Of a stretch of DNA of 64,000 bases, positions 15,713 to 59,009 are shown piece after piece. The notes beneath the pieces were generated by a model, which was not told the DNA's origin, did not search any database, and worked only from the letters and a program-made list of their open reading frames with translations. Position 1 is the first letter of the stretch; each line of letters opens with the position of its first letter. Source of the stretch: a virus; the IMG/VR virus record IMGVR_UViG_3300036795_000250, positions 65,194-129,193 of that record. The stretch is one strand, 5' to 3'. A program made the translations under genes and the position numbers.

Positions 15713-16106
15713 GACTCATGTGTCCTCGGGCGGCGCAGTTGAGCCAGATACACGCGGGTCAGTTCCTCATAGGAGGCATTGGGATGCTCACCGTGGTACG
15801 CCTCCAGGGCGCGCGCGAGCTCATCCACTCGTTGGGCTTCCCGAGCCTCACTCTTGGCCCGCCAAGCCGCGTACTGACCTAGTTCTTCGTCGTTCGCGGT
15901 GTCGGTCCAGGACGCCGTCACATTCCCGAGGACGACGTCCTCGACGGCGGTTCCTTCTGGGACCGCATCTCGCAGCAGCGCCAGGAGCAAGCCTACGGTC
16001 GGTGCCCCATCGAAGCGCAGGCATGCGCGGACGCCGTTCTCGATCTGGGCGGTCTTCTGGTAGCGGTTCAGGTGGACAGTCACGTCGCGCTTGTCACGAT
16101 CACTCA
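15709..16106 (-). CDS. hypothetical protein
   Basis: probable start near VSDRDKR behind GGAGAGAG; start approximate. Confidence 0.45.
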
Positions 16107-45642: not shown

Positions 45643-45915
45643 TCAGATGTGATCAGCCGCTCGGGGTACTGCGGCGGGGAGGTCAGCCAACAAGCCCCGC
45701 TCCGTTACCAACCGCCCCCACGATTGCAAGCTGATGGGGCGGTACGGGCGCCCGTCACAGGTGACGTTGACGCCGCTGTCGATGAGATACGGGACCATAC
45801 GGCCGATCTGATCGACGACATCGCTGGCTCGGTCCCAGGTGCGCAGCGCGTTCAGCGCCGCGCGCACGAGAGTGTCAACGTTGATCGATTGTTCTGGTAC
45901 AGCGTCGGTGTTCAT
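45643..45915 (-). CDS. hypothetical protein
   Basis: ATGA-coupled to the FtsK-like gene. Confidence 0.55.
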   Translation of the reverse strand: MNTDAVPEQSINVDTLVRAALNALRTWDRASDVVDQIGRMVPYLIDSGVNVTCDGRPYRPISLQSWGRLVTERGLLADLPAAVPRAADHI

Positions 45916-47300
45916 GCGGCACTCCTGTTTGGTGTTGTGGCGGGCCCGTCGATCAGTTGGCCGTTGTGCTCCACGAACAGCTCGATCCCCGTCCCCCTAG
46001 CCTCCAAGGCGTAGGGCTCCGGATCGAGGACTCGGACCGTCGTGGTCCAGGGCAGCGGGACGTCTTTCACCTCCCTGCTCTCGCCCCGATCAAGGTAGGA
46101 GATCACCTCCGCATTGCCGACGCCGGACACCGTGTAGGTGATGTGGGAGTACACCGGCACGGACGAGTTAGCGGCCACCACGAGCTCCGGCACTGGCTCC
46201 GTCGGCCACACGGGCTCAGGTGCTGCGCGGAGGTCGGCCACGGGCATGACGGTACTGATCAGTTCCCGTGCGTCCGCCTTGCTGACGTAGGCGCCCTGGA
46301 ACCGCGTCGGTGAGGCAGCACCGTTAGCCAGGTACAGACCATCGCCGGACCCGAACAGATGTTCCGCTCCGCCCTGATCGAGCGCCACCCGGGAATCCGA
46401 CTGAGACCGCACCCGGAACGCAACCGAGCTCGGCAGACTCGACTTCAGCGCGGTCGGGATCAGGTCCGCAGTCGGTTTCTGCGTGGCCAGCACCAAGATG
46501 ATGCCCGCCGCACGGCCCTTCGTCGCCAACTTGACCAGTAGCGGAGCGATCTCCTTTTTGTGGCTGGCCAGCAGATCGGCCAGTTCGTCCACCACGATCA
46601 CCGTATAAGGCAGCTGGTTCAGCCCGAGAGCGTTGTACTCGGCGATGTCGTCAACGCCGTGTTCCGCAAAGGATCTGCTGTATTCAGCCATTGTCGCTCT
46701 TACCGCTCGTAGCTCATCGACCGCATCAATGGACTCCGTGATGATCGGAGACATCAGATGCGGCACGTGCGCGAACGGAGTGAATGCCGTCATCTTGGGA
46801 TCAATGAGCAGCAGTCGCAACGCTGTCGCGTCATTGCGGGCGAGCAGGTCAAGCAACAGGCCGGTCAGGAAGATGCTCTTGCCGCTACCGGTGATCCCGG
46901 CAACGAGCAGGTGGACGTCCTCGGCCAGGTTCGCGGTCAGCGTCTCACCGGCAATGCTCCGACCGAGCGTGTAGGTGAGAGCAGGCGCGTCCGTTGACAT
47001 CGGGACGTCGTCACGGGCGAGGTAGGCCCGCACGACGCGTGGCACATCGACGGTCAACAAGGCTTCGCCGTTGGTTGGCATCCGCATATCGATGTTGTCG
47101 TGCCCCAACAGAAAGGCGATATCTTTGCGCATTGCCAGCACATCGCTGACCTTGGTTCCCATGCTTACCGAGATGCCGTAGCGGGTCAGTTGGGGAGCCA
47201 CCGTGCATGAGGCAACGCGGGCGTCGACATTCCGCGTTTCGAACAACCTCATGATTTTGCGTGCATTGTCGTCAGTGTCGATAGTCGATGATGTCGTCAT
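45912..47300 (-). CDS. FtsK/SpoIIIE-type ATPase with C-terminal MmpS-like domain
   Basis: HLLVAGITGSGKS, LLIDPK, VIVVDELADL, GRAAGIILVLATQKP, GAEHLFGSGD; C-terminal ITYTVSG..ISY..VPLPW. Confidence 0.88.
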   Translation of the reverse strand: MTTSSTIDTDDNARKIMRLFETRNVDARVASCTVAPQLTRYGISVSMGTKVSDVLAMRKDIAFLLGHDNIDMRMPTNGEALLTVDVPRVVRAYLARDDVPMSTDAPALTYTLGRSIAGETLTANLAEDVHLLVAGITGSGKSIFLTGLLLDLLARNDATALRLLLIDPKMTAFTPFAHVPHLMSPIITESIDAVDELRAVRATMAEYSRSFAEHGVDDIAEYNALGLNQLPYTVIVVDELADLLASHKKEIAPLLVKLATKGRAAGIILVLATQKPTADLIPTALKSSLPSSVAFRVRSQSDSRVALDQGGAEHLFGSGDGLYLANGAASPTRFQGAYVSKADARELISTVMPVADLRAAPEPVWPTEPVPELVVAANSSVPVYSHITYTVSGVGNAEVISYLDRGESREVKDVPLPWTTTVRVLDPEPYALEARGTGIELFVEHNGQLIDGPATTPNRSAA

Positions 47301-47448
47301 GGCGCATGCCTCCTTTCGACAGCTTGTCCTTTAATCCTACGCTGACTTAACGATCCTGAATTCACCACGCTGACCAAACATGCGAAGCGGCTAATCTCGA
47401 TGATGGTCGGCGCTATCTTCTGCAAGCGACACGAAAGCGCTGGTCAGA

Positions 47449-47472
47449 GGATGGTCACCCTCCTTATTTCGC
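47449..47472. repeat. 24-bp direct repeat, copy 1 (GGATGGTCACCCTCCTTATTTCGC)
   Basis: identical to 49960-49983. Confidence 0.8.
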
Positions 47473-47793
47473 TTGGGTGCCTTCGCTCGTTGGTCCGACA
47501 ACCAACCGGATCGCAGCGTCGGGGTTGTCCATGTGCCGACGAAAAGCGCTCATCGAACTGAGGTACCGGAAAATTTGGTCAGCGCGGTGACGGTCCTCGA
47601 CACGGACGGAGACCAGCCTGGTCGAATCGTCCACCGTGATGCTGTCGTTGACCAAGTCCGCGTAGTTCTGCTTCCAGTCCTCGCGATGGGTGAACCAGAT
47701 GGGCAGGTAGCCGCGCCACCAGTTGACGGAGCGCGGGAAGTTCGGTGCGGTGATCGCAGACTGGTCAATCGTGACGGTGTATGTGGAAGGCAT
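47464..47793 (-). CDS. array gene, hypothetical
   Basis: ATG just downstream of a repeat and GAGAGG RBS. Confidence 0.65.
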   Translation of the reverse strand: MPSTYTVTIDQSAITAPNFPRSVNWWRGYLPIWFTHREDWKQNYADLVNDSITVDDSTRLVSVRVEDRHRADQIFRYLSSMSAFRRHMDNPDAAIRLVVGPTSEGTQAK

Positions 47794-47880
47794 TGCCCTA
47801 ACCTCTCTCGCTTTACTGGCCTGGCAGCCAGAGCAACGCGCGGGCTAAGCCGCGCGCCACTCAAGCTGTCAGGGGACGAA

Positions 47881-48447
47881 TCAGCTGCCCAAGAGTTTCT
47901 CGATCTCGGACAACCTGGCCCGCAATTGCTGTTGCTCGGCAACCAGTGCGTCCCGGTCAACGGCCGTGTCGACAATCGTCAGGTCGCCATGGTCTCGGGC
48001 GCGGGCGATGTCGGCGTGGTCCGCAGGCACGTCCCGGACCTCCAGGACAGTGCCCTCTTGGGCTTCCAGACGCGGGTTTTTGACACTGCCGCCGCTATCG
48101 GCGAACCCGCCGGACACGATGATGACGCCATCGCCAAGGCGCACGGGTTCATCACGGCCGCGCCGACGGGCGATCATGCGACCGAACAGGTACAGCTCGC
48201 CGCTGTACGGGGCGTACCCCTCGGGGTCGGAGAGCCGGACTGTGACGGTCCGACTTGCGGTGCCGTCGGTGCCGTAGACCTCGCGGGCCAGCTCGCGGAC
48301 GCGTTCCTCGTCGCGGAGATCGAAAACCCACGTCTTGGCGTTGGCGTCCCAGCGCCCACCGATGGCCCGTGCCTTGCTGGGCATGGTCGGTTCGTACGGC
48401 GCGTGGAGGGTGACGGTCGTTTCGTCGGTAGTGACGTTGATGCCCAT
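47881..48447 (-). CDS. array gene, conserved phage protein with HARP-like N-terminus
   Basis: HAPYEP....ARAIGGRWDANAKTWVF. Confidence 0.75.
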   Translation of the reverse strand: MGINVTTDETTVTLHAPYEPTMPSKARAIGGRWDANAKTWVFDLRDEERVRELAREVYGTDGTASRTVTVRLSDPEGYAPYSGELYLFGRMIARRRGRDEPVRLGDGVIIVSGGFADSGGSVKNPRLEAQEGTVLEVRDVPADHADIARARDHGDLTIVDTAVDRDALVAEQQQLRARLSEIEKLLGS

Positions 48448-48522
48448 CGCGTATTCCTTCCTGTGCTATTGGATTGGCAGCCAACGCAGCAACCGGCGCA
48501 TGTCCGGTCACCACGCAAGTGG

Positions 48523-49233
48523 TCAGTCCTCGGTGCCTTCGGACTTCTGCGCGTGCCACTCGTCGAGCAGCTTCTGCGCGTCGGCCTCGCTCATCGGTGC
48601 ATCCGGGATCGGCACCACGACGACGTTGTTGGGCAGCACCGCATCCTCGATGTAGTGCTGCCCGCCGGTACCGTCCAGGCGGAATGCGAGCCGTCCGCTC
48701 CCGCTCTGCTCAACCCAGCCGTTCACCTCTGCGGCGATACGCTCGGCAGGGCTCTGCTGAGACTCGGGGTTGTTCGGATCCGCCCACCGTTGCGCAGCCT
48801 TGACCGCGTCCCGTGCGGCCTGCCCCGCCTCGATGCGTGTCAGGTAGTCGGCCGCAACGTCCAGAGCCTCCACGATCACGCTGGACAGCGGCGAGGCCAT
48901 GAACACCACGTTGGGCTCGGGGAACTGCGCGGGAGAGATCTCCCAGGCATCCGCGTTGGTGTCCGCGCTCACCTGGCCGTGCTCGATACCCCAGAGACTC
49001 CCCTCACCGATCGTGACCCCGTAGAGAGAGACCTCAACTTCCATACCCACTCCCATGAAGTCATCGCGGCGCCACCGGGCGAGGTAGTCCTCTCGGTCCG
49101 CCGGAGTATCAAACTCTTGATCCTTCGGGTCGTAGTCCTCATCTCGGTACATGCTGGCCTCGATGACGACCATGGGCGTGACGTCGTCATCGGGAGACTG
49201 CCACAACGTTTTCTGTTCGATCGGTTTGGTCAT
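48523..49233 (-). CDS. array gene, acidic hypothetical
   Basis: start MTKPIEQ; stop inside the repeat. Confidence 0.7.
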   Translation of the reverse strand: MTKPIEQKTLWQSPDDDVTPMVVIEASMYRDEDYDPKDQEFDTPADREDYLARWRRDDFMGVGMEVEVSLYGVTIGEGSLWGIEHGQVSADTNADAWEISPAQFPEPNVVFMASPLSSVIVEALDVAADYLTRIEAGQAARDAVKAAQRWADPNNPESQQSPAERIAAEVNGWVEQSGSGRLAFRLDGTGGQHYIEDAVLPNNVVVVPIPDAPMSEADAQKLLDEWHAQKSEGTED

Positions 49234-49309
49234 GATTCCTTCTTTCCCTTGTTGTTGACCTGATTGCCAGCACAGCGCGCGGGCCGAAACCCGTGCACCA
49301 TGCAAGCGG

Positions 49310-49591
49310 TCAGCTCTGCCGAGCCAGGAACGCGGCGATCACGGCGTCGTAGTCGCGCGCCATACCCTCTTTCGTAGGCCAGTTGCCCAACGACGCACCA
49401 GTTTCGATGTCGCCGATGTAGAAGCCTCCCAGGTCCGACGGGGACGGCCCTGCGTAGAACCGGCTCACGTTGTTCCCGTCGGCGTTGTACAGCAACCATT
49501 CACCCGTGCCCACATCGCGCCACGCCCACCCGGCGGGGAGGTTCGCGTCATCCCACGTGGTGCCGTCGGTGACGTCGAATACTGCGCTCAT
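49310..49591 (-). CDS. array gene, hypothetical
   Basis: start MSAVFDV; stop inside the repeat. Confidence 0.65.
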   Translation of the reverse strand: MSAVFDVTDGTTWDDANLPAGWAWRDVGTGEWLLYNADGNNVSRFYAGPSPSDLGGFYIGDIETGASLGNWPTKEGMARDYDAVIAAFLARQS

Positions 49592-49664
49592 ATCTCCTTC
49601 TCTCTTTTCGCTGGCCTGGCAACACCAGCACGGAGCGCGGGCAAGCCGTGCGCCATGCAAGCGG

Positions 49665-49919
49665 TCAGGTGTGCGCAACTTCGCTGTAGGGCTTCCAGCC
49701 ACGGACGGATTCACCGGCATACCAGCGTGTCTCTTTGGCGTAGAGCTGGGCAGCAAAGCCAGACGTTCGGGCGGCTTCGGCGTCGCGCTTGCGGTCGAAG
49801 TTGCCTTCGAGCTCATAACCGTCGGCCGCACAGATCGACCAGCAGCCACCAGTTTTGACCACTAGCCATGTTGAGGGTGGGTTCGCGGCGTGTTCTTCGG
49901 GATTGCTGAATAGCGACAT
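49665..49919 (-). CDS. array gene, hypothetical
   Basis: stop inside the repeat. Confidence 0.65.
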   Translation of the reverse strand: MSLFSNPEEHAANPPSTWLVVKTGGCWSICAADGYELEGNFDRKRDAEAARTSGFAAQLYAKETRWYAGESVRGWKPYSEVAHT

Positions 49920-49959
49920 TCTTCGACACCTTTCTCGGTATGACTTTCTTTGGTAGAAG

Positions 49960-49983
49960 GGATGGTCACCCTCCTTATTTCGC
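49960..49983. repeat. 24-bp direct repeat, copy 2
   Basis: identical to 47449-47472. Confidence 0.8.
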
Positions 49984-49994
49984 CCGGCACGGTG

Positions 49995-50336
49995 TCAGGC
50001 GACCTCTGCCAGATCCCGCAACACGACGTCCCGCACCTCTTGCGGGAGATCCGTCCAGCGGCAGGCGCGGTGTGCGTTGCGGAACCGGTAGGCGGCCACC
50101 TCGTACGCGGGCATATCGCCGTACATGCCGAATCCCTGCGCGTGTGTCGGGTGCTTCGACATGCCCCGGTAGCCGAGTCGCATATCCGCGTAGGTCGTGC
50201 CACACACGGGCGTCGCGTAGAAGATCGTGTACCGGTCCGCCGTCTTCGGGCCGTCGTCGTAGATTGCCAGCACTTCGCGCGGGCAATCACCATCGCGCCA
50301 ACCTGTCGACTGCCGACGGGGCGAATATTTGTTCAT
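49995..50336 (-). CDS. array gene, hypothetical
   Basis: LAIYDDGPKTADRYTI..PTHAQGFG. Confidence 0.7.
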   Translation of the reverse strand: MNKYSPRRQSTGWRDGDCPREVLAIYDDGPKTADRYTIFYATPVCGTTYADMRLGYRGMSKHPTHAQGFGMYGDMPAYEVAAYRFRNAHRACRWTDLPQEVRDVVLRDLAEVA

Positions 50337-50404
50337 GATCTACAACCCTTCTGCTGTCTGGCAACCAGCACAGGGCACGGTCGAGCCGTGCGCCATGCAA
50401 GCTG

Positions 50405-50572
50405 TCAGCCCTCAATCTCTCCGACGACTTCGCGGATCTTCTGTGCGACCGCTAGGGGCAGGCTCAACCAGCGCGAGTCACCCTGTGGGCCCGCGAACTT
50501 GACGCGAACCATGTCCGTGTCGCCGACACCCTTCAGAGCCAAGTCAATCTGGCGTTGCTCGTAATTGCTCAT
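50405..50572 (-). CDS. array gene, 55 aa hypothetical (not in ORF track)
   Basis: MSNYEQRQIDLAL after AGGAGG; stop inside the repeat. Confidence 0.6.
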   Translation of the reverse strand: MSNYEQRQIDLALKGVGDTDMVRVKFAGPQGDSRWLSLPLAVAQKIREVVGEIEG

Positions 50573-50574
50573 AG

Positions 50575-50784
50575 TCAGACCTCCTTTTCGTTACGTTCGT
50601 GCAGTTCGACGAAATCCTGTGGTACCTCGGTCACCTCGGCGCCGTCGGATGATGTGTGGTAGTTCAGTTCGTAGATACCGACAGGGTCAGGTTGACCCGG
50701 GTCGTTATCGGTCGTCGGCTCATCGTCATAGACCGCCACCCGCAACAGATCGAGTGCCGGATGTTTCCACACACGTAGCGGCAC
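50575..50784 (-). CDS. array gene, hypothetical
   Basis: fills the gap between neighbours. Confidence 0.5.
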   Translation of the reverse strand: MPLRVWKHPALDLLRVAVYDDEPTTDNDPGQPDPVGIYELNYHTSSDGAEVTEVPQDFVELHERNEKEV

Positions 50785-50787
50785 AGA

Positions 50788-51294
50788 TCAGCCCCCCGTC
50801 ATGACGTCGCGGGCGAGCGACATCAGCGTGTCGATCTCATCTTCGCGACCCTCGAACAACTGCCAGTCGTCGTTGCCGTCGGCTCGAACGTGCACGGCAT
50901 AGGTATGCGCCGACGCGTCCCAGTCGATGGTGAGCAGTTCCCCGGATGCGGGCGCTGGGTTGTCGCTTGCCGGGCTGTCGGGGGCTGTCTGGGCACCGCG
51001 CGCCTTGAGGTGCTGGTACCGCGTGCCTGCCACGAATGCATCCATCCACAGCGCGGCAAGAGTGGTCTTGTTGTCGTCGGCTTCAGCTACGGTCATCCGA
51101 CCGTGCAACGCGACCAGGCCGCGCATGGCGCGCTGAGTAGCCGCGTACACCAGCGATTGGGTATTGACGATCCGCCCGGCAATGTCTGGGATTGACTGGC
51201 CGCTGTCCGCCTGCGCATCGGTGTCGATGAGTGCCTGCGAGATCAGCCAAAAGTCTGGGTGGTCGGGCCGATCGGGGAAATTCTTATCCGTCAT
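50788..51294 (-). CDS. array gene, hypothetical
   Basis: start MTDKNFPDRPDHPDF. Confidence 0.7.
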   Translation of the reverse strand: MTDKNFPDRPDHPDFWLISQALIDTDAQADSGQSIPDIAGRIVNTQSLVYAATQRAMRGLVALHGRMTVAEADDNKTTLAALWMDAFVAGTRYQHLKARGAQTAPDSPASDNPAPASGELLTIDWDASAHTYAVHVRADGNDDWQLFEGREDEIDTLMSLARDVMTGG

Positions 51295-51369
51295 GGTTGC
51301 GTGTCCTTCCTCTGTGGTTCTGGCCACCAGCGCAGCAACCGGGCTCTTGTCCGGTCACCACGCAAGCGG

Positions 51370-51855
51370 TCAGTCTCCGATCAGCAACGTACCGGCGTGA
51401 AGTTCCTTGGTGGTCACGTGTGGTGAGCTTTCACCCGGGTGAGGCATGTGCATGATCAGCCGCCCGGCATGTTCGGCGTCGGTGTCCGATGGGATGCGCC
51501 GCACGGTGAACGCGAACGCGCCGCGCGGGTCACCGACACTGATCATTACCGTAACGCTGTCTTCGCGCTCGTCCAGATGGATTGCAGCGGAGTTGACCCA
51601 CGACAGCGGGATCGGTTCCGGGTCGTGCGGGCCGTAGTCCACGCTGTCATCAGTGACCGGACCGTCAAGAAGGTTTTCGAGGCATAGCGCACCTTCGGGC
51701 CCACCGGAGAACACTTCGCCGTCTTGGGTGAGCGGTTCACTGCACGCGCGGCATCGGTGGGTTTCCTCGCGGTCCGTGTCGAACTCGACCGTGACGTACT
51801 CGACATCGTCCGTGACCTCTTGCGATTCACTGTCGATGCTGATCAGGGGAAGCAT
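51370..51855 (-). CDS. array gene, hypothetical
   Basis: stop inside the repeat; ISVGDPRGAF. Confidence 0.7.
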   Translation of the reverse strand: MLPLISIDSESQEVTDDVEYVTVEFDTDREETHRCRACSEPLTQDGEVFSGGPEGALCLENLLDGPVTDDSVDYGPHDPEPIPLSWVNSAAIHLDEREDSVTVMISVGDPRGAFAFTVRRIPSDTDAEHAGRLIMHMPHPGESSPHVTTKELHAGTLLIGD

Positions 51856-51934
51856 GGTTATGTCCTCTCGTTGGTTCTGGCAACCAACGGAACGAACGAG
51901 CCGGTCAGGGATCGCACGTTCCGCAAGTGGTCAG

Positions 51935-52501
51935 TCATTCGCCGCGCAGCTCCGCGTCATAGTGCATGGCGCCGTTCGCGTCGACCTTGTCGTAATCCAG
52001 GCCCAACGCATCGCAGAGGTGGCGCGCGTTGGCCAGGAAGTCACCCAACACCAATTCGGGCGACTCGTCAGAGACTAAGGTCATGAGCGCAAACGAGCGA
52101 AGACCTCTCAGCGCCCACTGTGCACGCAGGTAGTTGTCTGCGGAATAGTCTTTCCAGTCGAGTTGATCATCACTCGTGCACTCGTCAAGGTCAACAAGTC
52201 TGACGTCGTCGGGGATCGACTCCATGAACGGCGTGGCTGGATAGAGCACTTCCGCAGCATCGGAAGCCGGGGGGCTGCTGGTCAGCTTGCGCCAGTTGAT
52301 CGGCCCGTTGTGGGCGGACAGCAACGTATCGAGTTGGGCGAAATCGGCCGCCAGTTGGCTTTGGTAGTCGTCCGCCCGCGAACGGTGTTCCGACGCTGCC
52401 ATGTATCGCAAGGCGCCATCCGACTCATCCGCCGCTTTATGCTCATTGTCAATTCGAGCGAGTAGCTCACGAATGCCCATCAACAATTCACGTTCGGCCA
52501 T
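51935..52501 (-). CDS. array gene, hypothetical
   Basis: DFLANARHLCD..GLDY; stop abuts the repeat. Confidence 0.7.
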   Translation of the reverse strand: MAERELLMGIRELLARIDNEHKAADESDGALRYMAASEHRSRADDYQSQLAADFAQLDTLLSAHNGPINWRKLTSSPPASDAAEVLYPATPFMESIPDDVRLVDLDECTSDDQLDWKDYSADNYLRAQWALRGLRSFALMTLVSDESPELVLGDFLANARHLCDALGLDYDKVDANGAMHYDAELRGE

Positions 52502-52576
52502 TGCTCTCACCTTTCTCTGTGGTCTGGCAACCAACACAGTGCACGGACCACTAGGGCCCGTGCGCCACGCAAGCGG

Positions 52577-52831
52577 TCAGCCATTGACGTACGATTCTGC
52601 GATGGTGAGGAATTCCTTGTAGCTCTTGGGCGGCTTCGTCATTCCGAACTGAGATGGATCGACAACCGGCCTGTTTGACCAGCTCGATTTGTCATCCCGC
52701 TTGGCACCGAACGAGAGTCCGCTAGTGCCGCGCGCGTTGACCAGCGTGTAGCGGGTTCCAGACTCGGACACCCATTCGACCGCAAACGCAGCGAGGTTGC
52801 TGACGTTGACGAGACCCACTTTTTCAGTCAT
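52577..52831 (-). CDS. array gene, hypothetical
   Basis: start MTEKVG; stop inside the repeat. Confidence 0.65.
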   Translation of the reverse strand: MTEKVGLVNVSNLAAFAVEWVSESGTRYTLVNARGTSGLSFGAKRDDKSSWSNRPVVDPSQFGMTKPPKSYKEFLTIAESYVNG

Positions 52832-52898
52832 TGCTCTACCTCCGTTGTCTGGCAACCAACACAGTGCGCGGACCGAAGCCCGTGCGCCATGCAAGTGG

Positions 52899-53147
52899 TC
52901 AGTTGGCCAGTCCGCCCGGGTATTCGTCCGACTGATACACATCGCGTCCCTGGTCAAAGCCGTTCGTGTAGTGACCCTCACCGGACTCGTACGCGTCCTG
53001 CTCGGACTGAGTACCCGTACCGAGGTCATCACTGGCCGCCCAGTCGTAACCAGCGTGGAAGCCGACCCGAGCCTGTTCCCGTGCCTCACCCTGCAAACCG
53101 ATCTGATCGAGCCACGCGGACACGTCGAACGCTGGATTTTCCGTCAT
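52899..53147 (-). CDS. array gene, acidic hypothetical
   Basis: stop inside the repeat. Confidence 0.65.
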   Translation of the reverse strand: MTENPAFDVSAWLDQIGLQGEAREQARVGFHAGYDWAASDDLGTGTQSEQDAYESGEGHYTNGFDQGRDVYQSDEYPGGLAN

Positions 53148-53228
53148 GATCCAAAACCTCTCTGTCGTTGGTCTGAGAACACAACAGAGCGGCTATCTCC
53201 CCCTCGTGGATAGCCGCTCGATGAGTCA

Positions 53229-53615
53229 TCAGAGCTTGACGCCGAACACGTTGACGCGCTCGACGTAGTAAGGGCCGACGTAGTGTGTCCACCGACGGCT
53301 GACACTCGCCACGATGGCCGCCCACAGTCGCGAGTTGAAGTCCGGGCCGTCCCCCTCGACGTGCGCGCTTCTCTCGGTCAGCACGCCCGTGTAGGGGTCC
53401 TCGTACGGCTTGAGCTCGCTCAGCCAGGTACGGCGGTCGTAGGGACCAGGATCCGCGCTCGGAGAGCCGAATCCCTCACCCTCCAACCAGTCCGCGCACT
53501 CCCGTGCGTTGTCGAACGAGTGGGAGTCGGTGCGTTCGTCGGTGCGCTCCCTCTCGTCTGCTCCCTCTTCCCACGCTGCGTAGGTTGCCGTGTGGACTTC
53601 AATGGTGATTTTCAT
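53229..53615 (-). CDS. array gene, hypothetical
   Basis: start MKITIE; stop inside the repeat. Confidence 0.65.
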   Translation of the reverse strand: MKITIEVHTATYAAWEEGADERERTDERTDSHSFDNARECADWLEGEGFGSPSADPGPYDRRTWLSELKPYEDPYTGVLTERSAHVEGDGPDFNSRLWAAIVASVSRRWTHYVGPYYVERVNVFGVKL

Positions 53616-53710
53616 GGTTGGTGGGCTCCCTAGGTGGGCTGATTGAACAACAGAACGGCCACCGTGTGATCGATGGCCGTTCGATGAACCGTCAGACCTT
53701 GTGCGCGCAC

Positions 53711-54088
53711 TCAGGCTTGCGCTACGTCCGCGACGTGTTCGAGCAGCGGAACAACGCCGTTGCTCTTGGGTGTCCAGGAAACCGCGTGCCCTCGGTCTCC
53801 GCCGAGAGGGGAACCGCAGCCGTCGCATGATGACGACGAAAACCAAGGTTCGCAGGATTCGACCTCGGTACCGGTTGCGCGCGCCTCCCTGCCGCAGTGC
53901 TCGCAGTCCAGCGAACCGAGCGTGATATCCGTGTCACCCCACAACGCGGCCATTTTGTCACTCTGCGCGCTGGTGATGTCTTCCCCGGAACTGTCCAGTA
54001 CCTCGCCGTTGGCGAGCAGCGCGACGCAATCCGTACAGATAGTCAGTTCGGTTGTGTCGAATTCCTTGCCGTTCACGCCAATTGTCAT
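53711..54088 (-). CDS. array gene, Cys-rich hypothetical
   Basis: ICTDC..FSSSSCDGCGSPLGGDR. Confidence 0.7.
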   Translation of the reverse strand: MTIGVNGKEFDTTELTICTDCVALLANGEVLDSSGEDITSAQSDKMAALWGDTDITLGSLDCEHCGREARATGTEVESCEPWFSSSSCDGCGSPLGGDRGHAVSWTPKSNGVVPLLEHVADVAQA

Positions 54089-54161
54089 TGCTCTCAACTC
54101 CTGTTGTCTGGCAACCAACGGAGCGAACGAGCCCGTAGGGGATCGCACGCTCCGCAAGCGG

Positions 54162-54380
54162 TCAGCTATCCAACCGATCCATCATGTGACCGAACATCAC
54201 GTGTAGCCGCGTGTTGACCTTGACGCGTGCCGCGTTGACGATGGCAGGGTCAACACCCAACGTGATGAGCGCAGCCTCTCCCGCGTCGATAGCGTCCTTG
54301 CCCGGGTAGTTCATGATGATGTTGTAGGCCAGTTCGACCCTGTGATCCTCCGTTGTGGTGGTCGTGATCTTTCCGTTCAT
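54162..54380 (-). CDS. array gene, hypothetical
   Basis: stop inside the repeat. Confidence 0.6.
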   Translation of the reverse strand: MNGKITTTTTEDHRVELAYNIIMNYPGKDAIDAGEAALITLGVDPAIVNAARVKVNTRLHVMFGHMMDRLDS

Positions 54381-54452
54381 TGCGCAGCCCTCTCGTTGTC
54401 TGCCAACCAACACCGCGCACGGACCGCTAGAGCCCGTGCGCCATGCAAGCTG

Positions 54453-54740
54453 TCAGCGTTTGTCGTCGGCGACCACGTCGCCGCACATTTCGTGGTCGTG
54501 TTCCTGGTCGCCTGGCATGGCGCACGTGCGCTGATCTGGTTGCACGTCGTCCGGGTTGAATGCGCGGAGTAGGTCAGCGCCGGTACGTGTCACGGTCCAT
54601 TCGCGGTGCCCTGCCGATCGGGGGCGAACGAGTCGCGCGTCCCACACAGCGCGCCACTGGTCATCATTCGCACGGGCATCCCGAGTGTTGAACCGCGCTA
54701 CGTGTTTCAGCACGTGCTCGATAGTGAGTCTTTCGCCCAT
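54453..54740 (-). CDS. array gene, hypothetical
   Basis: start MGERLT; stop inside the repeat. Confidence 0.6.
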   Translation of the reverse strand: MGERLTIEHVLKHVARFNTRDARANDDQWRAVWDARLVRPRSAGHREWTVTRTGADLLRAFNPDDVQPDQRTCAMPGDQEHDHEMCGDVVADDKR

Positions 54741-54814
54741 TGTGTTGCCCTTCCGTTGGCCTGAGTAACTAGCAGTGTGCACGGGCTCTTGTCCGTGCAC
54801 ACTGCCGTAGCTGA

Positions 54815-55009
54815 TCAGGGTTGCGGTGAGTCGTGCCCAGAGTTGAGCTGATCGCAGAGCGCTTCCGCCTGTCCGGCGGTCTCGCGTTCTTGCGACGGGT
54901 AGGCGCTGGTATCGCCGTTGCGGTAGGCAATCCACGCGTCGTAGTCGACCACGCGGAAGCTGTCCGTCTCATTGGTGTTCGAGTGCGGACGTAGGACGAC
55001 ATAGCCCAT
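54815..55009 (-). CDS. array gene, hypothetical
   Basis: stop inside the repeat. Confidence 0.6.
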   Translation of the reverse strand: MGYVVLRPHSNTNETDSFRVVDYDAWIAYRNGDTSAYPSQERETAGQAEALCDQLNSGHDSPQP

Positions 55010-55088
55010 TATTTTGACCTTTCATTACTAGGCTGATCACCTAGCACGGTGCGCGGGCTCTACAGTCCGTGCGCCATGCCGTAGCTGA

Positions 55089-55424
55089 TCAGCGGAGCAC
55101 TGGCATGCTTGGCTGGAGTAGCTTCCGCAGCTCCGCTGCCTGGTCTCCACCTTGACGCATGATCGACTCGACCAGCATCACAGTCAGCTCAACCGCGCTT
55201 GGGAGGTGCATTTCGGCGGCTTGGTCTGCGAGTTGCTGACATTCGGAGTCCGGATTCAGGTCCCCACCACAGTCACAGCCGTCAGTTGACGGCCCGTGTT
55301 CATAGTTCGAGCACAGTTCGTCCCCGTCAATCGTTACGGGATCCATTACCCACGTACGTGCACCCGACTCGTCTTCGGCCAAATTCAGATAGACCGCTAC
55401 CGATTCTTCTATCTTGTGTTTCAT
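55089..55424 (-). CDS. array gene, hypothetical
   Basis: start MKHKIE; stop inside the repeat. Confidence 0.6.
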   Translation of the reverse strand: MKHKIEESVAVYLNLAEDESGARTWVMDPVTIDGDELCSNYEHGPSTDGCDCGGDLNPDSECQQLADQAAEMHLPSAVELTVMLVESIMRQGGDQAAELRKLLQPSMPVLR

Positions 55425-55499
55425 TGTCTCTCTGTCCTTCCTAGGCTGATCACCTAGCACGGTGCGCGGACCGTAACCCGTGCGCCATGCCGTAGCCGA

Positions 55500-55706
55500 T
55501 CAGATCATGCCGTCTGAGTACCAAGGCTCATCTTCGTACTCACTCGTTCCGTTGCAGGCAGCACAATCAGCCGTGCATACCGCGTCCCACGTGGAGCGTG
55601 GCGAGCGTTGCACCATGGTGTGACCGTTGACCGCCCGGTACGGCTTGCGCCACTCCTCGTTGTCCTGCTCCGCGATCAGGTCTCGTGTGTTCACTTGCTG
55701 TGTCAT
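55500..55706 (-). CDS. array gene, hypothetical
   Basis: start MTQQVN; stop inside the repeat. Confidence 0.6.
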   Translation of the reverse strand: MTQQVNTRDLIAEQDNEEWRKPYRAVNGHTMVQRSPRSTWDAVCTADCAACNGTSEYEDEPWYSDGMI

Positions 55707-55796
55707 CGTTCGGCCCTCCTTACTCCGTTGTCTGGCAACCAACGGAACGAACGAGCCTGTAGAGGGATCGCGCGTTCCGCAAGTGGTCAGAGCCGA

Positions 55797-56069
55797 TCAG
55801 GCACGCTCACGCGTGAACGGGTGAATCGTGGTGAGCCGTTCCCCGTTCATCGTGGTGTGACCCGGTAGTCCGTTCTTACGGACGCGAAACCAGCCATTCC
55901 AGGGACTGTGATAGGTCTCGGCGTAGGTGGGGTCACTCAGGTGCACCGTGTCCGCGAACACGACCGTTACGCGGTCAAGGTCATAATCCCAGTAGCTCCC
56001 CCCGTCGGTGATCCGCTCACCGTTCGCCGTCAAGAACCGTGCATCCGTGTTCGGGTCGATGTTTTCCAT
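55797..56069 (-). CDS. array gene, hypothetical
   Basis: stop in the CTGATCGG tail. Confidence 0.6.
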   Translation of the reverse strand: MENIDPNTDARFLTANGERITDGGSYWDYDLDRVTVVFADTVHLSDPTYAETYHSPWNGWFRVRKNGLPGHTTMNGERLTTIHPFTRERA

Positions 56070-56158
56070 CGTGTGGCCTTTCTAGGTAGTCCGATAAAGC
56101 AAGTGAATGGCTACCGGGAATGCCGCTAGCCATTCAATGAGTCATCGGGCCGATCAGA

Positions 56159-56356
56159 TCATTTCTTTGGTTCTATGGTGAGATCTCCGATAGCCAACGT
56201 GGCTGACCTCATCGAACGGTGGACAGAGACGGTCAGCCAGTTGTGCCACTCGTCTTGTTTTTTGACCGAGTAGAATTGGCCAAGCATGCCGTTTCGGCGG
56301 ATGCGATAGTCGCCGATTTGCCATTCCCAGCCGCGAACTATTGTTATGGTTTTCAC
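56159..56356 (-). CDS. array gene, lower-GC hypothetical
   Basis: GTG start next to the truncated repeat. Confidence 0.5.
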   Translation of the reverse strand: MKTITIVRGWEWQIGDYRIRRNGMLGQFYSVKKQDEWHNWLTVSVHRSMRSATLAIGDLTIEPKK

Positions 56357-56401
56357 TAGTTGTGCTCCGTAGGGGGTCGCGCGTTCCGCAAGCGGTCAGA
56401 A

Positions 56402-56743
56402 TCAGTCGACTGGCACGGTCTCACTGGCAACGTGTTCCGTGCACATGTACACGTCGCCCTGCAAGCCGCCCAGACGGACCGTGACGGCTCCCGGGTTCGG
56501 GCAGTCGCCAGACCACCCGCACGGGTCGGCAGGGCTCCCACCAGCCGCACGGGAGCCGAGCACGCTGCGCAGTTTCTGCCGCGCGATCACGCGCAGCGTG
56601 TGCGTGCCGAACCGCTTGTCCAACCGCACGAGATAGGCAATCTCTGCCGCGATCTCGTCATCCGTGAACAGGCTTGGTCTCGTCTGTGGGGTTGGCTCGT
56701 TCATCCGGGCTTTGCCGGGTACGTACTTCTCTCCGCCACGCAT
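56402..56743 (-). CDS. array gene, hypothetical
   Basis: start MRGGEK; C-terminal C..C..C.H. Confidence 0.55.
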   Translation of the reverse strand: MRGGEKYVPGKARMNEPTPQTRPSLFTDDEIAAEIAYLVRLDKRFGTHTLRVIARQKLRSVLGSRAAGGSPADPCGWSGDCPNPGAVTVRLGGLQGDVYMCTEHVASETVPVD

Positions 56744-56825
56744 GGTCTTGTCCTTTCTAGGCTGATCACCTAGCACAGCGCGCGGGCCCTAGTGGTCCGT
56801 GCACCATGCCGTAGCTGATCAGAGG

Positions 56826-57011
56826 TCACAGCACCTGTTCAAGGTCGGCAGTCACGTAGCTGCGTTCCGCACCGGACTTGTCCAGTTTGACGACCGTCAT
56901 CTCTGGTACCTGGTGTTGCCGCACGACTACCCCGTACCGGTCACCTCGCATCCATTGATCTGTCCAGACCGGAATCTCGACACGTGTTCCTGGTGCGTAT
57001 GTGCCTGTCAT
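56826..57011 (-). CDS. array gene, small beta-rich hypothetical
   Basis: GTRVEI...D.WMRGDRYG.V..VKLDKSG. Confidence 0.65.
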   Translation of the reverse strand: MTGTYAPGTRVEIPVWTDQWMRGDRYGVVVRQHQVPEMTVVKLDKSGAERSYVTADLEQVL

Positions 57012-57080
57012 TTTCCCTACCTCTCTGGTCTGAGTAGCTAGCACAGTGCACGGGCAAGCCGTGCACCATGCCGTAGCCGA

Positions 57081-57335
57081 TCAGTACTCGAAGTCGGCTG
57101 AGCCGATCAGCATCGCGGCGAATGCGATGCCTTCTAGGAAATCTGCGCTCACCGCTTGCGCTGCCCACTCAGTCCCTGCCAGACACTCAACGAGGTTCTG
57201 TCGGTCGGTAGTGATCATCTCTTGCAGTCGCTGAGCTAGTCCGTCCCGCGCTTCCCGGATGCCCTCGGAGCGGCTGGATTCGGTCAGCGCGGCGATTTTG
57301 TCTACGTAGTCGCCGATCTGCTCTTCTGTGGTCAC
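57081..57335 (-). CDS. array gene, hypothetical
   Basis: stop inside the repeat. Confidence 0.6.
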   Translation of the reverse strand: MTTEEQIGDYVDKIAALTESSRSEGIREARDGLAQRLQEMITTDRQNLVECLAGTEWAAQAVSADFLEGIAFAAMLIGSADFEY

Positions 57336-57430
57336 GGATTGACCCTCTCGTCATGGTGGGCCGATAAGCCAACAGAACGGCCCTCACGTGCTCTGTGTGG
57401 GCCGTTCGATGAGTCATCGGGGTACATCCC

Positions 57431-57805
57431 CTACCGGGGGTCGACGATGCGCGTACGGATGCCGTCGGGCCCTGCCGCGATTTCGGTCACGAGACCGCGT
57501 GGGTTGATGGTGAGCGCGTACTCATGTGCCGCTTCGATGTCACTGACACGCGGCGCTGGCTGATCGGTGTACGTGCTCAGGTAGGGCATGCCGAGAGCAT
57601 CCCGGTAGATCCCCGCTTCCCCCCACGTGACGGGGAAGCTGAACGGCTCACCAGTCTCGGTCAGGAGTTGCGCCATCCAGTTGTCGAGCACGCGGACAGA
57701 CATCGTCTTGCCCGCGACGCGCATGTGCACGCATACCTCGGAGCCTGGAAGCTCGATCGCGACCACGTCGCCAACGGCGACGGTTGTGGTCAAATACTTG
57801 CGCAT
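57431..57805 (-). CDS. array gene, hypothetical
   Basis: start MRKYLTT after GAGGA. Confidence 0.6.
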   Translation of the reverse strand: MRKYLTTTVAVGDVVAIELPGSEVCVHMRVAGKTMSVRVLDNWMAQLLTETGEPFSFPVTWGEAGIYRDALGMPYLSTYTDQPAPRVSDIEAAHEYALTINPRGLVTEIAAGPDGIRTRIVDPR

Positions 57806-57900
57806 AACAATCAATCCTCTGTGTAGGCGCCGATAAGCCAACGGAGCGGCTACCGGCAAGGTCGGTAGCCGTTCGATGAGTCATCGGTGTGTAGAGCCGA

Positions 57901-58110
57901 TCAGGCGACTTCGGTCCGGAGCAACCGCGCCAATCGGTAGTAGGTGGCATTCGGCAGTGCGCTGAAAAGCGCGTCGCGAATGGCGAGCGCGTCCGCTTTC
58001 ACCGTGTCCTGAAACACCGTGCGGTCAGCGCTGCCAACGTCGCCCGGGAGCGGTACAGGCAGGCACGTGACGCTGAGCGTGCCCCAACTGTGGATAGTCA
58101 GGTCAGTCAT
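57901..58110 (-). CDS. array gene, hypothetical
   Basis: start MTDLTI. Confidence 0.6.
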   Translation of the reverse strand: MTDLTIHSWGTLSVTCLPVPLPGDVGSADRTVFQDTVKADALAIRDALFSALPNATYYRLARLLRTEVA

Positions 58111-58184
58111 GCTCTTGTCCTCTCTGTGGTCTGAGTAGCTAGCACGGTGCGCGGACCGAAGCCCGTACACCGTGCCGTAGCTGA

Positions 58185-58790
58185 TCAGAGCAATTCCGCC
58201 TTGCCGCTGTCGGTGAGCACGTACCGGCCGTCCGCGTTGAGCTCAACCCAGCCGTGCTGAACCAACACGTCGATCATGGTTCCGGGATTGCCCTGCGAGC
58301 GCAGGCCACGCGCGATCATGCGCAACTCGCGTTGCGCCGGAGTGCCCGGGGAGGTGTCCACCGTGTCAGCGGCAACCGTGACGACGATGGAACGCGGATC
58401 GACCAGGTAGGAAACCCCGATCGGCGCACGGTTGAATTCGGCCCGCACATCGTCGGTGATCTGCGGTACCGCTTCCGCGCGGAAGCATTGCCGCGCCGCG
58501 CTCTCGGAGGATGCTTCCACGGTGGCGGAATACTCCCGTTTGCCGTTGAGCGAGGATGCCGTCACGGTGTACGTATGCAGCTGCACGGTGGGAGTGTGCC
58601 TGTTGTCGATCATGTAACTTCCCTTCTCAGAATCGAGAATCCAGCGATCAGGCTGAGCTATGACGCTCAAGGTTCCGATATCGAGCCTGCCTGATCGGTC
58701 GGTAGTGGAGTCGGGCGTCACTGCGACGTAGCTACCGGTGGACATATGGCGGAGCTCTCTCGCCAGTTCATCTCGCCCCATCGTGATCAC
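58185..58790 (-). CDS. first array gene, hypothetical with C-terminal winged-helix-like end
   Basis: LVQHGWVE...RYVLTDSGK; stop inside the repeat. Confidence 0.65.
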   Translation of the reverse strand: MITMGRDELARELRHMSTGSYVAVTPDSTTDRSGRLDIGTLSVIAQPDRWILDSEKGSYMIDNRHTPTVQLHTYTVTASSLNGKREYSATVEASSESAARQCFRAEAVPQITDDVRAEFNRAPIGVSYLVDPRSIVVTVAADTVDTSPGTPAQRELRMIARGLRSQGNPGTMIDVLVQHGWVELNADGRYVLTDSGKAELL

Positions 58791-58993
58791 TAGTCACGGT
58801 CAGCGGATTGACTACACGGATGCGTTCGACCGTGCGCACTTTATGTTGGGGCCTCCGGACTCTCACGGCTGGTATCCGCCAGCGCTATGTCCCAAGGGCC
58901 TTGTGTCCCGAGGGCTCGAACCCCGGTGACGCCGATCTGTTCTCAGTCTCTCTGTCGTCACTACATCTGCGACGTTAGCCAGTTCCGTAAACG

Positions 58994-59009
58994 ACATGAG
59001 TACTCATGT
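58994..59009. promoter_or_regulatory. 16-bp perfect palindrome, candidate operator in the array leader
   Basis: ACATGAGTACTCATGT; a TTGACC hexamer lies about 40 nt upstream on the minus strand. Confidence 0.4.

Follow-up and report, generated by a model that had tools for sequence, protein, structure and literature searches.

Stop-linked hairpins punctuate an accessory operon of an uncultured soil phage and may act as mRNA elements

The window analysed in this work (64,000 nt) is the second half of a 129,193-bp IMG/VR record of an uncultured soil phage. It contains an operon of small co-oriented genes, most of them without a known family, which is punctuated by hairpin modules and has an FtsK/SpoIIIE-like gene directly downstream (Table 1). 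Comparison of the array proteins with Pfam and PHROGs gave no named function, the three matches being to PHROGs of unknown function, and no paralogs were found among the 29 proteins compared. Gene 10 had zero homologs among 5.8 billion proteins, and relatives of array genes 19 and 27 sit in quite different contexts. Two tyrosine recombinases/integrases are encoded in this genome, more than 55 kb from the array, and the phage is probably temperate.

The repeats that the first-pass annotation had placed at about 47821-58188 were confirmed: 24 copies were present at 47,817-58,188, all of them on the minus (coding) strand, and regex and nhmmer searches of the whole 129,193-bp record found no copies outside this interval. 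Thirteen copies belonged to type A (one of them truncated), six to type B and five to type C. The arm variants quoted earlier were also recovered, GCATGG/CTGTGY at 49313 and 52902, GCGTGG/CTGCGY at 48526 and 51373, GAGTGG/TTGCTC at 47872, and GCGGAACG/CGTTCCGT at 51934 and 55790.

Table 1. Operon, downstream gene and hairpin copies in the window, listed in the direction of transcription after the operon.
Feature	Positions	Strand	Characteristics	Basis
Operon	47464..58613	-	28 small co-oriented genes, 55-236 aa	ORF and start-codon reading
Hairpin, type B	58127..58188	-	TGA serves as upstream stop; apical loop c-UUCG-g	
Hairpin, type C	57827..57889	-	preceding B-type head remnant (57896-57904) carries the upstream stop	
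Hairpin, type C	57357..57422	-	upstream stop TAG 10 nt before	
Hairpin, type B	57026..57084	-	embedded stop; CUUGC loop	
Hairpin, type B	56758..56822	-	stop 3 nt before (TGACCT then CTGATC...)	
Hairpin, truncated type A	56370..56399	-	limited to the 5' arm and loop, with the break at the loop	
Hairpin, type C	56087..56150	-	preceding B-type head remnant (56149-56157)	
Hairpin, type A	55728..55790	-	GCGGAACG variant; preceding B-type head remnant (55792-55800) carries the upstream stop	
Hairpin, type B	55442..55503	-	embedded stop; UACG-containing loop	
Hairpin, type B	55029..55092	-	embedded stop	
Hairpin, type B	54757..54818	-	embedded stop	
Hairpin, type A	54396..54456	-	embedded stop	
Hairpin, type A	54104..54165	-	GCGGAGCG variant; embedded stop	
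Hairpin, type C	53635..53697	-	stop 17 nt upstream	
Hairpin, type C	53170..53234	-	embedded stop (CTGATGACTCATCG...)	
Hairpin, type A	52845..52902	-	embedded stop; c-UUCG-g loop	
Hairpin, type A	52520..52580	-	embedded stop	
Hairpin, type A	51873..51934	-	GCGGAACG variant; stop abuts the first base of the hairpin (TGA then CTGACC...)	
Hairpin, type A	51316..51373	-	GTGGTGACCGG variant; embedded stop	
Hairpin, type A	50354..50408	-	embedded stop	
Hairpin, type A	49612..49668	-	embedded stop; CUUGC loop; 2-nt insertion in the 3' arm; sole z-score above 0	
Hairpin, type A	49256..49313	-	embedded stop; u-UUCG-g loop	
Hairpin, type A	48470..48526	-	GTGGTGACCGG variant; embedded stop	
Hairpin, type A	47817..47872	-	GAGTGG/TTGCTC variant; stop 9 nt upstream	
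FtsK/SpoIIIE-like gene	45912..47300	-	directly downstream of the array	Pfam PF01580, E 3e-36

Beyond the window, the hairpin family was found with a covariance model in two more genomes. The complete 68-kb genome of the related phage G297 contained 13 copies, likewise placed shortly before an FtsK-like gene; this homolog (39% at the amino acid level) sits right after the last hairpin. Proteins shared by the two phages were only 34-70% identical, and the four array genes common to both occurred in a different order and were followed by other hairpin variants. A Pseudonocardiaceae prophage presented a single copy and no proteins in common with the array. With the exception of this prophage, no copies appeared in 151 + 3 + 7 + 147 host-family genomes. 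Amycolatopsis genomes carry a different, REP-like palindrome family.

The same module of about 85 nt recurred at every junction of the array, consisting of a stop codon (CTGA...), an imperfect hairpin of 21-26 bp, a purine-rich leader of about 20-30 nt and a start codon. The hairpin begins at the stop codon of one gene and closes shortly ahead of the ribosome-binding site of the next, the UGA of CUGA being both the upstream stop codon and the base of the stem. All 38 copies (24, 13 and 1 in the three genomes) were co-oriented with the genes. The embedded TGA was the upstream stop in 15 of the 24 window copies and in 9 of the 13 copies of G297, and the remaining copies of both phages had the stop at most 17 nt upstream of the hairpin; across all 37 full copies a stop codon was found in the stem base or within 17 nt of it. 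No upstream ORF read into the stem at the junctions of the window and G297. Intergenic lengths ranged from 67 to 95 nt in the window and leader lengths from 20 to 33 nt in G297, and the Shine-Dalgarno leader was mostly unpaired in folded intergenic regions. Type C, unrelated in sequence, occupied the same site and displayed the closing pairs of the other types (CUGA/UCAG or CCGA/UCGG). The positions of the 1x1 mismatches, with the pattern '(((.(.(((.(((', were identical in both phages despite differing neighbouring pairs.

MFE z-scores against dinucleotide shuffles were -1.7 or lower in 22 of the 23 full copies, the exception being the copy at 49668 (+0.46). The covariation of the inner stems, proposed from the sequence at first reading, was borne out by the 18 copies of types A and B, in which 9 of 13 pairs changed on both sides (0 of 500 shuffles as high) and 92.7% of cells were paired, compared with 22-56% in slid controls. 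The full stem of type A (21 pairs) was paired in 91.2% of cells and had 8 compensatory pairs, a number reached by 13 of 500 shuffles, and its covariation score was matched by none of 500. For type C, 95 of 105 cells were paired and 6 of 21 pairs were compensatory. When 29 copies from the three genomes were aligned, with the alignment fitted to the covariance model's own structure, 91.8% of cells were paired (25-45% in slid controls) and 14 of 21 pairs changed on both sides, with 0 of 500 shuffles as high; all such p-values overstate independence, because copies within one genome share descent. In addition, palindromes may stay symmetric through template switching at the DNA level, so that compensatory changes do not by themselves imply selection on RNA.

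G-U pairs had been said to fall mostly on the minus strand, and the strand-symmetric arm alignment agreed with this (59 G·U vs. 29 A·C, the latter being those that would be G·U on the plus strand) except for type B, which taken alone presented no excess (12 vs. 12), a result counted against the RNA reading. In the 29-copy alignment G·U amounted to 95 and A·C to 19 (62 and 14 in the window, 29 and 5 in the second phage, 4 and 0 in the prophage). When both strands were folded, 19 of 23 copies were more stable as minus-strand RNA (mean difference -3.14 kcal/mol; Wilcoxon p = 0.0024), whereas the bias was absent from 281 coding control windows (mean strand difference +0.17 kcal/mol). With DNA parameters it was nearly gone (-0.73; 15 vs. 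8 copies), being about four times larger under RNA than under DNA parameters. The sense strand also folded better in 10 of the 13 copies of G297, and the RNAalifold consensus of the 29 copies reached -29.15 kcal/mol in sense vs. -11.26 in antisense. Counting against the RNA reading, the other strand folded at least as well in 4 of the 23 copies of the window and in 3 of the 13 of G297. The earlier proposal, in which stronger conservation of the fold than of the sequence on the transcribed strand favours an RNA or single-stranded DNA element over a double-stranded operator, was supported and replicated in independent genomes; RNA is separated from single-stranded DNA of the same strand only by the larger bias under RNA parameters and by the translation-linked layout. 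The stable loops named in the first-pass annotation were all found (UUCG at 52902, 49313 and 58188, a UACG-containing loop at 55503, CUUGC at 49668 and 57084), but the tetraloop argument is weak, because the three UUCG copies share one apical sequence and represent one or two events.

Judging from sequence and position, we tentatively regard the repeats as candidate cis-acting mRNA hairpins of one long accessory-gene operon, which may mark and protect cistron ends and may also serve as a joint for gene shuffling. The hairpin most likely acts on the message, because its fold is kept while its letters change and is best on the mRNA strand. Each junction of the transcript would present the stop at the stem base, a stem with conserved 1x1 mismatches, and a free purine-rich leader in which the ribosome-binding site precedes the next start codon by about 20-30 nt. 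A double-strand-specific nuclease, such as a host enzyme of the RNase III type, or trimming by a 3'-to-5' exonuclease would act at the hairpin, which would then cap the 3' end of the upstream message, while the leader downstream would be set free, in the manner of the RNase III sites between the T7 early genes. The module could also provide homology for gene gain, loss and reordering, since the same 85 nt or so stand at every junction. No RNase III gene was found in this genome, which counts against this reading.

In coliphage T7, RNase III processing signals lie between the cistrons of the early genes (R0.3-R1.3). As in T7, a hairpin of about two helical turns with internal loops is placed here between cistrons of a long phage transcript and is predicted to stay as the protective 3' end of the upstream message. 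In contrast to T7, cleavage is putative, there is no sequence or Rfam similarity, and the hairpins include the stop codon of the preceding gene or lie next to it, belong to a repeat family that has a conserved leader, and are found in actinobacterial phages. The analogy is partial, since the upstream stop codon is not known to form part of the RNase III sites of T7. A length of two helical turns and the presence of internal loops are described, in the available text of one source, as determinants of RNase III reactivity that results in protective 3' hairpins (PMC1540722).

It is unlikely that the hairpins are primarily DNA recombination joints, at which folded single-stranded DNA or repeated homology would swap single-gene cassettes in an integron-like or copy-choice manner and the RNA structure would be a by-product. 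Such exchange would fit the three type B head remnants (CTGATCGGC), which share one breakpoint and are joined to a type A or C copy, the type A copy cut at its loop, the mutually unrelated array genes, the lack of a homolog of gene 10 and the other contexts of genes 19 and 27, the reordering of the four genes shared with G297 next to other hairpin variants, and the same hairpin in a prophage without any array protein. However, tyrosine recombinase is absent from the complete G297 genome, the two recombinases of this genome scored 45 and 33 bits on the integron-integrase model (cut-off, 265), neither a Y1 transposase in this genome nor attC-type R/L boxes were found, and neither the G·U excess of the sense strand nor the fixed stop/start spacing is accounted for by a role in DNA alone. 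Integron attC sites separate promoterless gene cassettes of the same orientation by imperfect hairpins with conserved mismatches, in which structure is conserved more than sequence and which often contain stop codons. The array resembles them as a one-orientation series of promoterless single genes separated by imperfect hairpins with stops in the site, conserved mismatches and a structure more constant than the sequence, but it has no integron integrase and no R''/L''-L'/R' boxes, its better-folding strand is the sense one, and its repeat unit includes a conserved leader with the ribosome-binding site. The promoter-early stem-loops (PeSLs) of T4-type phages, as far as the available text of two papers describes them, are likewise short repeated cassettes between small non-essential genes of a plastic region, implicated in modular shuffling (PMC2839356, PMC4122927), but they combine a strong sigma-70 promoter with a terminator, whereas here there is neither promoter nor U-tract. 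Promoter-like sites numbered 3 in 15 kb (2.9 expected), one of them touching a repeat. Integron, REP, PeSL and ESAS elements were each ruled out as the identity of the repeats, and the hairpin had no match in Rfam.

A role in translation appears similarly improbable. A ribosome at the UGA would melt the lower stem, whose refolding would place the stop next to the following leader and so hand ribosomes onward (by coupling or by a bypass resembling a shunt), or else the hairpin would insulate each ribosome-binding site from the sequence upstream of it. The stop placement in 37 of 37 full copies, with no ORF entering the stem, and the narrow leader and intergenic spacing agree with this, as does the MFE fold of junctions 2 and 8, in which the B-head remnant is paired with the Shine-Dalgarno region downstream. 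Against it, each downstream gene has its own Shine-Dalgarno, unpaired in most folds, so independent initiation suffices, and a stop-start distance of about 70-95 nt is long compared with known coupling. Coupling models based on RNA unfolding and scanning are established, and MIRUs, in the available account, are also intergenic repeats in operons that keep neighbouring stops and starts coupled (PMC12548453), but a MIRU is a translated direct repeat and the hairpin here is untranslated.

It is quite doubtful that the copies are terminators or attenuators without a U-tract (factor-dependent or 'I-shaped'), through which operon expression would fall stepwise or which a phage antiterminator would override. 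The hairpins are stable, G+C-rich and directly after stop codons, and U-less hairpins have been reported at 3' ends in actinobacteria, whereas mycobacterial RNA polymerase has been reported to need a U-tract. No U-run stands behind 22 of the 24 copies, a series of 24 terminators would shut off the distal genes, the FtsK-like one among them, and the conserved mismatches and the leader would be left unexplained. A terminator scan, which flagged two sites inside repeats (five in the whole region vs. 8.7 expected), upheld the earlier statement that no U-tract follows the repeats, and a classical terminator was ruled out.

Very unlikely, too, is a reading as REP/MITE-like palindromes, selfish or neutral, that multiply in intergenic space, owe their symmetry to DNA repair and have no function for the phage: the family is multi-copy with truncated and hybrid members, and Amycolatopsis genomes hold another such family, but the copies are confined to one operon and one orientation and invariably separate a stop from a start, the array precedes FtsK in both phages despite the divergence of their proteins, mismatch positions are conserved, this genome has no RAYT/Y1 transposase, and host-family genomes lack the hairpin save for one prophage. 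REP elements, in the available text, are also intergenic operon hairpins proposed as mRNA stabilisers (PMC3733652); unlike them, the repeats here have no GTAG/CGTC 5' tag and no RAYT and are not genome-wide.

The least probable reading is that of double-stranded binding sites for a phage regulator, comparable to mycobacteriophage stoperators (L5) or ESAS inverted repeats (Cluster K), since, although the repeats are intergenic, in one orientation and only in the non-structural operon of a probably temperate two-integrase phage, their arms change together in at least five variants plus the unrelated type C, which a single DNA-binding protein would not tolerate, and a G·U strand bias is meaningless for duplex DNA. 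The conserved inverted repeats (CIRs) of Streptomyces phage phiC31 are similarly highly conserved and intergenic in an actinophage early region, but they are 17-bp repressor operators. The consensus of the Cluster K SAS motif was absent from the repeats analysed here. For ESAS, Pope et al. argued that departures in the arms do not support RNA pairing and favoured DNA-binding sites, at least in the available text (PMC3203893). SAS/ESAS elements, according to the accessible parts of two reports, share with our repeats the actinobacteriophage host genome, the non-structural arm, the single orientation and an imperfect inverted repeat just upstream of a motif linked to the ribosome-binding site and the start (PMC3203893, PMC12699233), whereas the arms of our hairpins covary, extend over 21-26 bp in contrast with 17 in ESAS, and include the stop codon.

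The phage record that contains the window (129,193 bp, estimated to be 96% complete) encodes DnaE, PolA, RecA, a sliding clamp and an FtsK-like protein, and its closest named relative is Saccharomonospora phage PIS 136 (65% identity in DnaE). On the minus strand, 28 small co-oriented genes precede the FtsK-like gene. They form an array of single promoterless ORFs with one site per cassette, and a hairpin repeat was present at 24 of the 28 junctions. Two of the remaining junctions were tight (2-3 nt) and the two longer ones carried a different 24-nt motif, GCGAAATAAGGAGGGTGACCATCC, which may be an alternative junction module; at 47468 the upstream gene terminates at the TAA of this motif. The only match of the gene 10 product among 5.8 billion proteins was itself, and gene 27 had 74 relatives, which came from phages and genomes of actinobacteria. 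A copy of gene 27 with 77% identity (P0002) is encoded on a 130-kb contig, the likeliest close relative. When the whole record was searched by regular expressions and nhmmer, the repeats were confined to this array, a 10.4-kb operon, and to the minus strand.

Coordinates of the features described in the text
Feature	Sequence	Coordinates	Strand
Window	Phage record	65,194-129,193	
Hairpin repeats, types A, B and C	Window	47,817-58,188	minus
Array of 28 small genes	Window	58,613 to 47,464	minus
Array gene 10 (111 aa)	Window	55089-55424	minus
Array gene 27	Window	47881-48447	
24-nt motif	Window	49961-49979 and 47450-47468	minus
A+C-rich non-coding stretch	Window	58800-59520	
Promoter-like site	Window	near 59,045	
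Sigma-70 site touching a repeat	Window	50364-50335	
Two tyrosine recombinases, outside the window	Phage record	G000:C1:3563-4138 and 55825-56334	
Junction with a different hairpin	L275 (phage G297)	about 6,717-6,800	
The same junction	L274	262-350	
Two short repeat arrays	L185 (phage PIS 136)	12,901-13,050 and 15,680-15,890	
17-bp palindromes	L198 (phage locus)	9,277-15,908	
Tandem array, 12-nt unit	L212 (phage contig)	14,107-14,590	
Tandem array, 24-nt unit	L209 (phage contig)	16,952-17,375	
Tandem array, 10/20-nt unit	L190 (phage contig)	18,965-19,700	

Three types of hairpin were distinguished. Type A (n = 13, one copy cut at the loop) began with CTGAC and ended with CAG in all aligned copies; type B (n = 6) presented the same inner stem as type A with a different outer stem containing a 2-nt bulge, and type C (n = 5) was unrelated in sequence to the other two. 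All of them started with CTGA or CCGA and closed with TCAG or TCGG; a purine-rich leader, similar among the types, and then a start codon came next, and their stems of 21-26 bp contained conserved 1x1 mismatches. In 15 of the 24 window copies the upstream gene ended at the hairpin's own TGA, and in the other nine its stop codon lay at most 17 nt upstream of the hairpin; no upstream ORF entered the stem in any window copy.

The first-pass annotation had proposed that the inner stems covary, and the arm pairs quoted in its support were present in our alignments. Across the 13 inner-stem pairs of the 18 A and B copies, 92.7% of the cells were paired and nine pairs had changed on both sides, although copies of one genome are not independent, a limit shared by all the pairing counts in this work. 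None of 500 shuffles equalled this level of covariation, and slid registers were only 22-56% paired. Type A alone (21 pairs) displayed 91.2% of paired cells and eight compensatory pairs, a number reached by 13/500 shuffles, and type C had 95 of 105 cells paired, with compensatory pairs at 6/21. Palindrome correction at the DNA level could mimic compensatory change. Folding was far better than that of the copy's own dinucleotide shuffles in 22 of the 23 full copies.

A preference for the minus strand, which is the coding strand, had also been claimed. RNA folding of both strands agreed with it, the minus strand being more stable in 19/23 copies (mean difference -3.14 kcal/mol), whereas the same difference averaged +0.17 in 281 coding windows of the region; with DNA parameters the value for the repeats fell to -0.73. 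The statement that G·U pairs lie mostly on the minus strand held overall (59 G·U vs. 29 A·C, counted from a strand-symmetric arm alignment in which A·C stands for what would be G·U if the plus strand were read) but failed for type B (12 vs. 12). UUCG, UACG and CUUG-type loops were found where they had been annotated, although we placed little weight on these tetraloops because the three UUCG copies have a common apical sequence.

A covariance model built from 12 type A copies retrieved all six type B copies, none of which had been used in its building. Among 151 genomes sampled from the family of Saccharomonospora sp. CUA-673, it gave one strong match (60.3 bits), in the Pseudonocardiaceae genome G054. 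This copy, at C42:26,497-26,554, lies in a prophage that also has a terminase, a ParB-like gene and DUF932. Two co-oriented genes flank the copy, and the upstream one ends at the hairpin's TGA. Nothing else in its surroundings resembled the window phage, tblastx of the prophage against the record yielding only compositional noise. A gapped pattern made of the positions common to this copy and type A retrieved two IMG/VR records: G298, a provirus with the same hairpin copy as G054, and G297, a phage of 67.8 kb that is complete and has terminal repeats.

Phage G297 contained 13 sense-strand copies inside 6 kb, and the end of its array directly precedes an FtsK homolog. Homologs of four array genes were present (34-70% identity) in a different order, each followed by G297's own hairpin variants. 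The layout of stop, hairpin, leader and start was the same as in the window: the embedded TGA was the stop in 9/13 copies, 1/13 was ambiguous and 3/13 had a stop 6-10 nt upstream, and leaders measured 20-33 nt. Both arms of the inner stems differed from their counterparts in the window, with 1x1 mismatches at identical positions. One further G297 junction had a different hairpin (CCAGCCTGGCGGAC...GTCCGCCGTACTGG) unmatched by the model; therefore more than one hairpin type occurs in this phage, as in the window.

In the three-genome alignment (29 copies), 91.8% of the cells were paired and double changes occurred at 14/21 pairs (0/500 shuffles), the alignment having been fitted to the structure of the model, which is thereby somewhat favoured. 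G·U pairs exceeded A·C in every genome (95 vs. 19 in all 29 copies). The RNAalifold consensus was -29.15 kcal/mol for the sense and -11.26 kcal/mol for the antisense strand, and it was also lower on the sense strand for the window copies alone and for the other copies alone.

Several features together fit an element that most likely acts in mRNA: the bias towards the sense strand, which was stronger with RNA than with DNA energy parameters; a stem that translation does not enter and that has a stop codon at its base; an unpaired leader whose short distance is constant; and a mismatch geometry kept while the sequence changes. In the T7 early region, RNase III sites are arranged so as to leave protective 3' hairpins. 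The window repeats resemble signals of this type in being intercistronic hairpins of about two turns with mismatches, with a 2-nt bulge in type B, and their processing is predicted here. RNase III substrates are described as extending over about two helical turns interrupted by an internal loop or bulge, and cutting only one of their strands leaves protective 3' hairpins (PMC1540722). On the basis of the mRNA-fitting features, the likeness to RNase III substrates and the T7 arrangement, we tentatively favour, at somewhat less than an even chance, that the hairpin would act in mRNA to mark and protect cistron ends.

Lesser weight was given to a primary role in recombination. A module that doubles as a recombination joint fits several observations: three type B head remnants, each interrupted at an identical position and fused to a copy of another type, together with the type A copy cut at the loop; the absence of paralogs among the array genes and the presence of one ORFan gene; and the changed order of the shared genes in G297, each followed by hairpin variants of that genome. 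The array is similar to an integron cassette array in its co-oriented single promoterless ORFs with one site each. However, the tyrosine recombinases of the record, neither of integron type, lie >55 kb from it and scored 45.1 and 32.7 bits on TIGR02249 (cut-off 265), and none was found in the complete genome of G297. The attC consensus boxes, R''(RYYYAAC)-L''...L'-R'(GTTRRRY), were not present in the window hairpins, GTTGGTT occurring in some 3' arms without the complementary ...AAC in the 5' arm.

Translational coupling was also given lesser weight. Sequestration of the Shine-Dalgarno sequence by the hairpin was rejected, the leader being unpaired in most folds. It is improbable, but conceivable, that the module is a bacterial counterpart of the ribosome shunt, in which a ribosome terminating on the UGA at the stem base would be brought beside the leader on the far side by the refolding stem and would re-initiate there. 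Translation of an operon of unrelated, freely shuffled genes would then run as one coupled chain, with the module as a plug-in joint for new genes.

Termination without a U-tract ranked below cistron-end protection as well. As the first-pass annotation had noted, no U-tract followed the hairpin in 22/24 copies; a classical intrinsic terminator, which needs one behind its G+C-rich hairpin, was thus discarded. The PeSL of T4-type phages combine a strong sigma-70-type early promoter with an effective intrinsic terminator, whereas here the U-tract is lacking and no promoter goes with the repeats: a scan limited to the sigma-70 consensus gave three sites vs. 2.9 expected in 15 kb, only one of them touching a repeat.

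A function as duplex operators also received lesser weight. The 13-bp consensus of Cluster K SAS, a motif located upstream of start codons, was matched once, with two mismatches, in 64 kb (1.49 expected) and outside the array. The ESAS are 17-bp imperfect inverted repeats whose arms are reported as not supporting RNA pairing (PMC3203893), unlike the arms of the present repeats, which keep pairing through double changes (9/13 pairs in the window and 14/21 in the three-genome alignment).

Selfish repeats were likewise given lesser weight: a REP/RAYT system consists of a gene for a Y1 transposase and of palindromes with GTAG/CGTC tags that are dispersed across the genome, whereas PF01797 was not matched and the copies lie within one operon. 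CRISPR-like repeats were discarded for their wrong length and because the "spacers" are genes, and ribozymes for the lack of an Rfam match, with no hit at gathering score in the window and none at E<=1 in 47,300-59,700.

If the modules act on the message, they would represent an uncatalogued RNA motif family and a route by which dozens of small genes, newly acquired and unrelated to one another, stay expressed from a single phage transcript, each plugged in between two standard parts, a stop-hairpin and a leader; expression and shuffling of phage accessory operons, usually separate questions, would become linked. The family is open to direct testing, with one member in the prophage of a sequenced bacterium, G054, of the family of Saccharomonospora.

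Other searches revealed no further members. Megablast of the 11-kb array against phage and plasmid collections gave zero matches, short exact repeat patterns found only single chance matches in viral contigs, and longer type B and type C patterns found none. A type A 23-mer had no match in genome contigs and one in a metagenome contig, judged to be chance (5' arm only, no hairpin). No relatives of the FtsK-like protein were found in viral contigs, and the one DNA run that matched contained only the probable source contig and no variant strain, while no RNA run was listed for the region. A wider gapped pattern retrieved 90 stretches, and all 77 new single-hit loci were rejected by the model (L273 and L274 were known before). 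In 3, 7 and 147 further genomes only weak matches appeared, to another palindrome family; those in Amycolatopsis scored 28-37 bits. Four genomes of this genus (L267, L268, L269, and L271) contain a separate family of near-perfect 25-bp palindromes, CTGRMGGAGCRGTGCGCACGGCC..., with GCGGGATCGC and GCGATCCCGC on their flanks; its appearance suggests a REP- or MITE-like element of the genus.

A stem-extension scan detected no such hairpin families at 27 viral loci with a gene 27 homolog, at 45 bacterial loci with a gene 19 homolog, or in the first 48 kb of PIS 136; the repeats at these loci were of other kinds, namely tandem repeats, palindromic operators, and CRISPR-like repeats. PIS 136 has a 28-29-nt repeat, GGTTCATCCCCGC...GCGGGGCGGA, in two short arrays with 61-bp spacing, which look like phage-carried CRISPR arrays. 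Locus L198 contains at least 10 copies of a perfect 17-bp palindrome, TGCATACTAAGTATGCA, each beside a TTGGCA-like box; these copies probably serve that phage as repressor operators or promoters. Long tandem arrays were observed in three unrelated phage contigs (L212, L209, and L190) that have the gene 27 homolog in common.

Upstream of the first array gene, about 0.7 kb of non-coding DNA is A+C-rich in the minus-strand reading and without Rfam match. This stretch, which may supply the operon with its promoter and leader, includes a promoter-like site, TTGACC-N18-TAAGAG.
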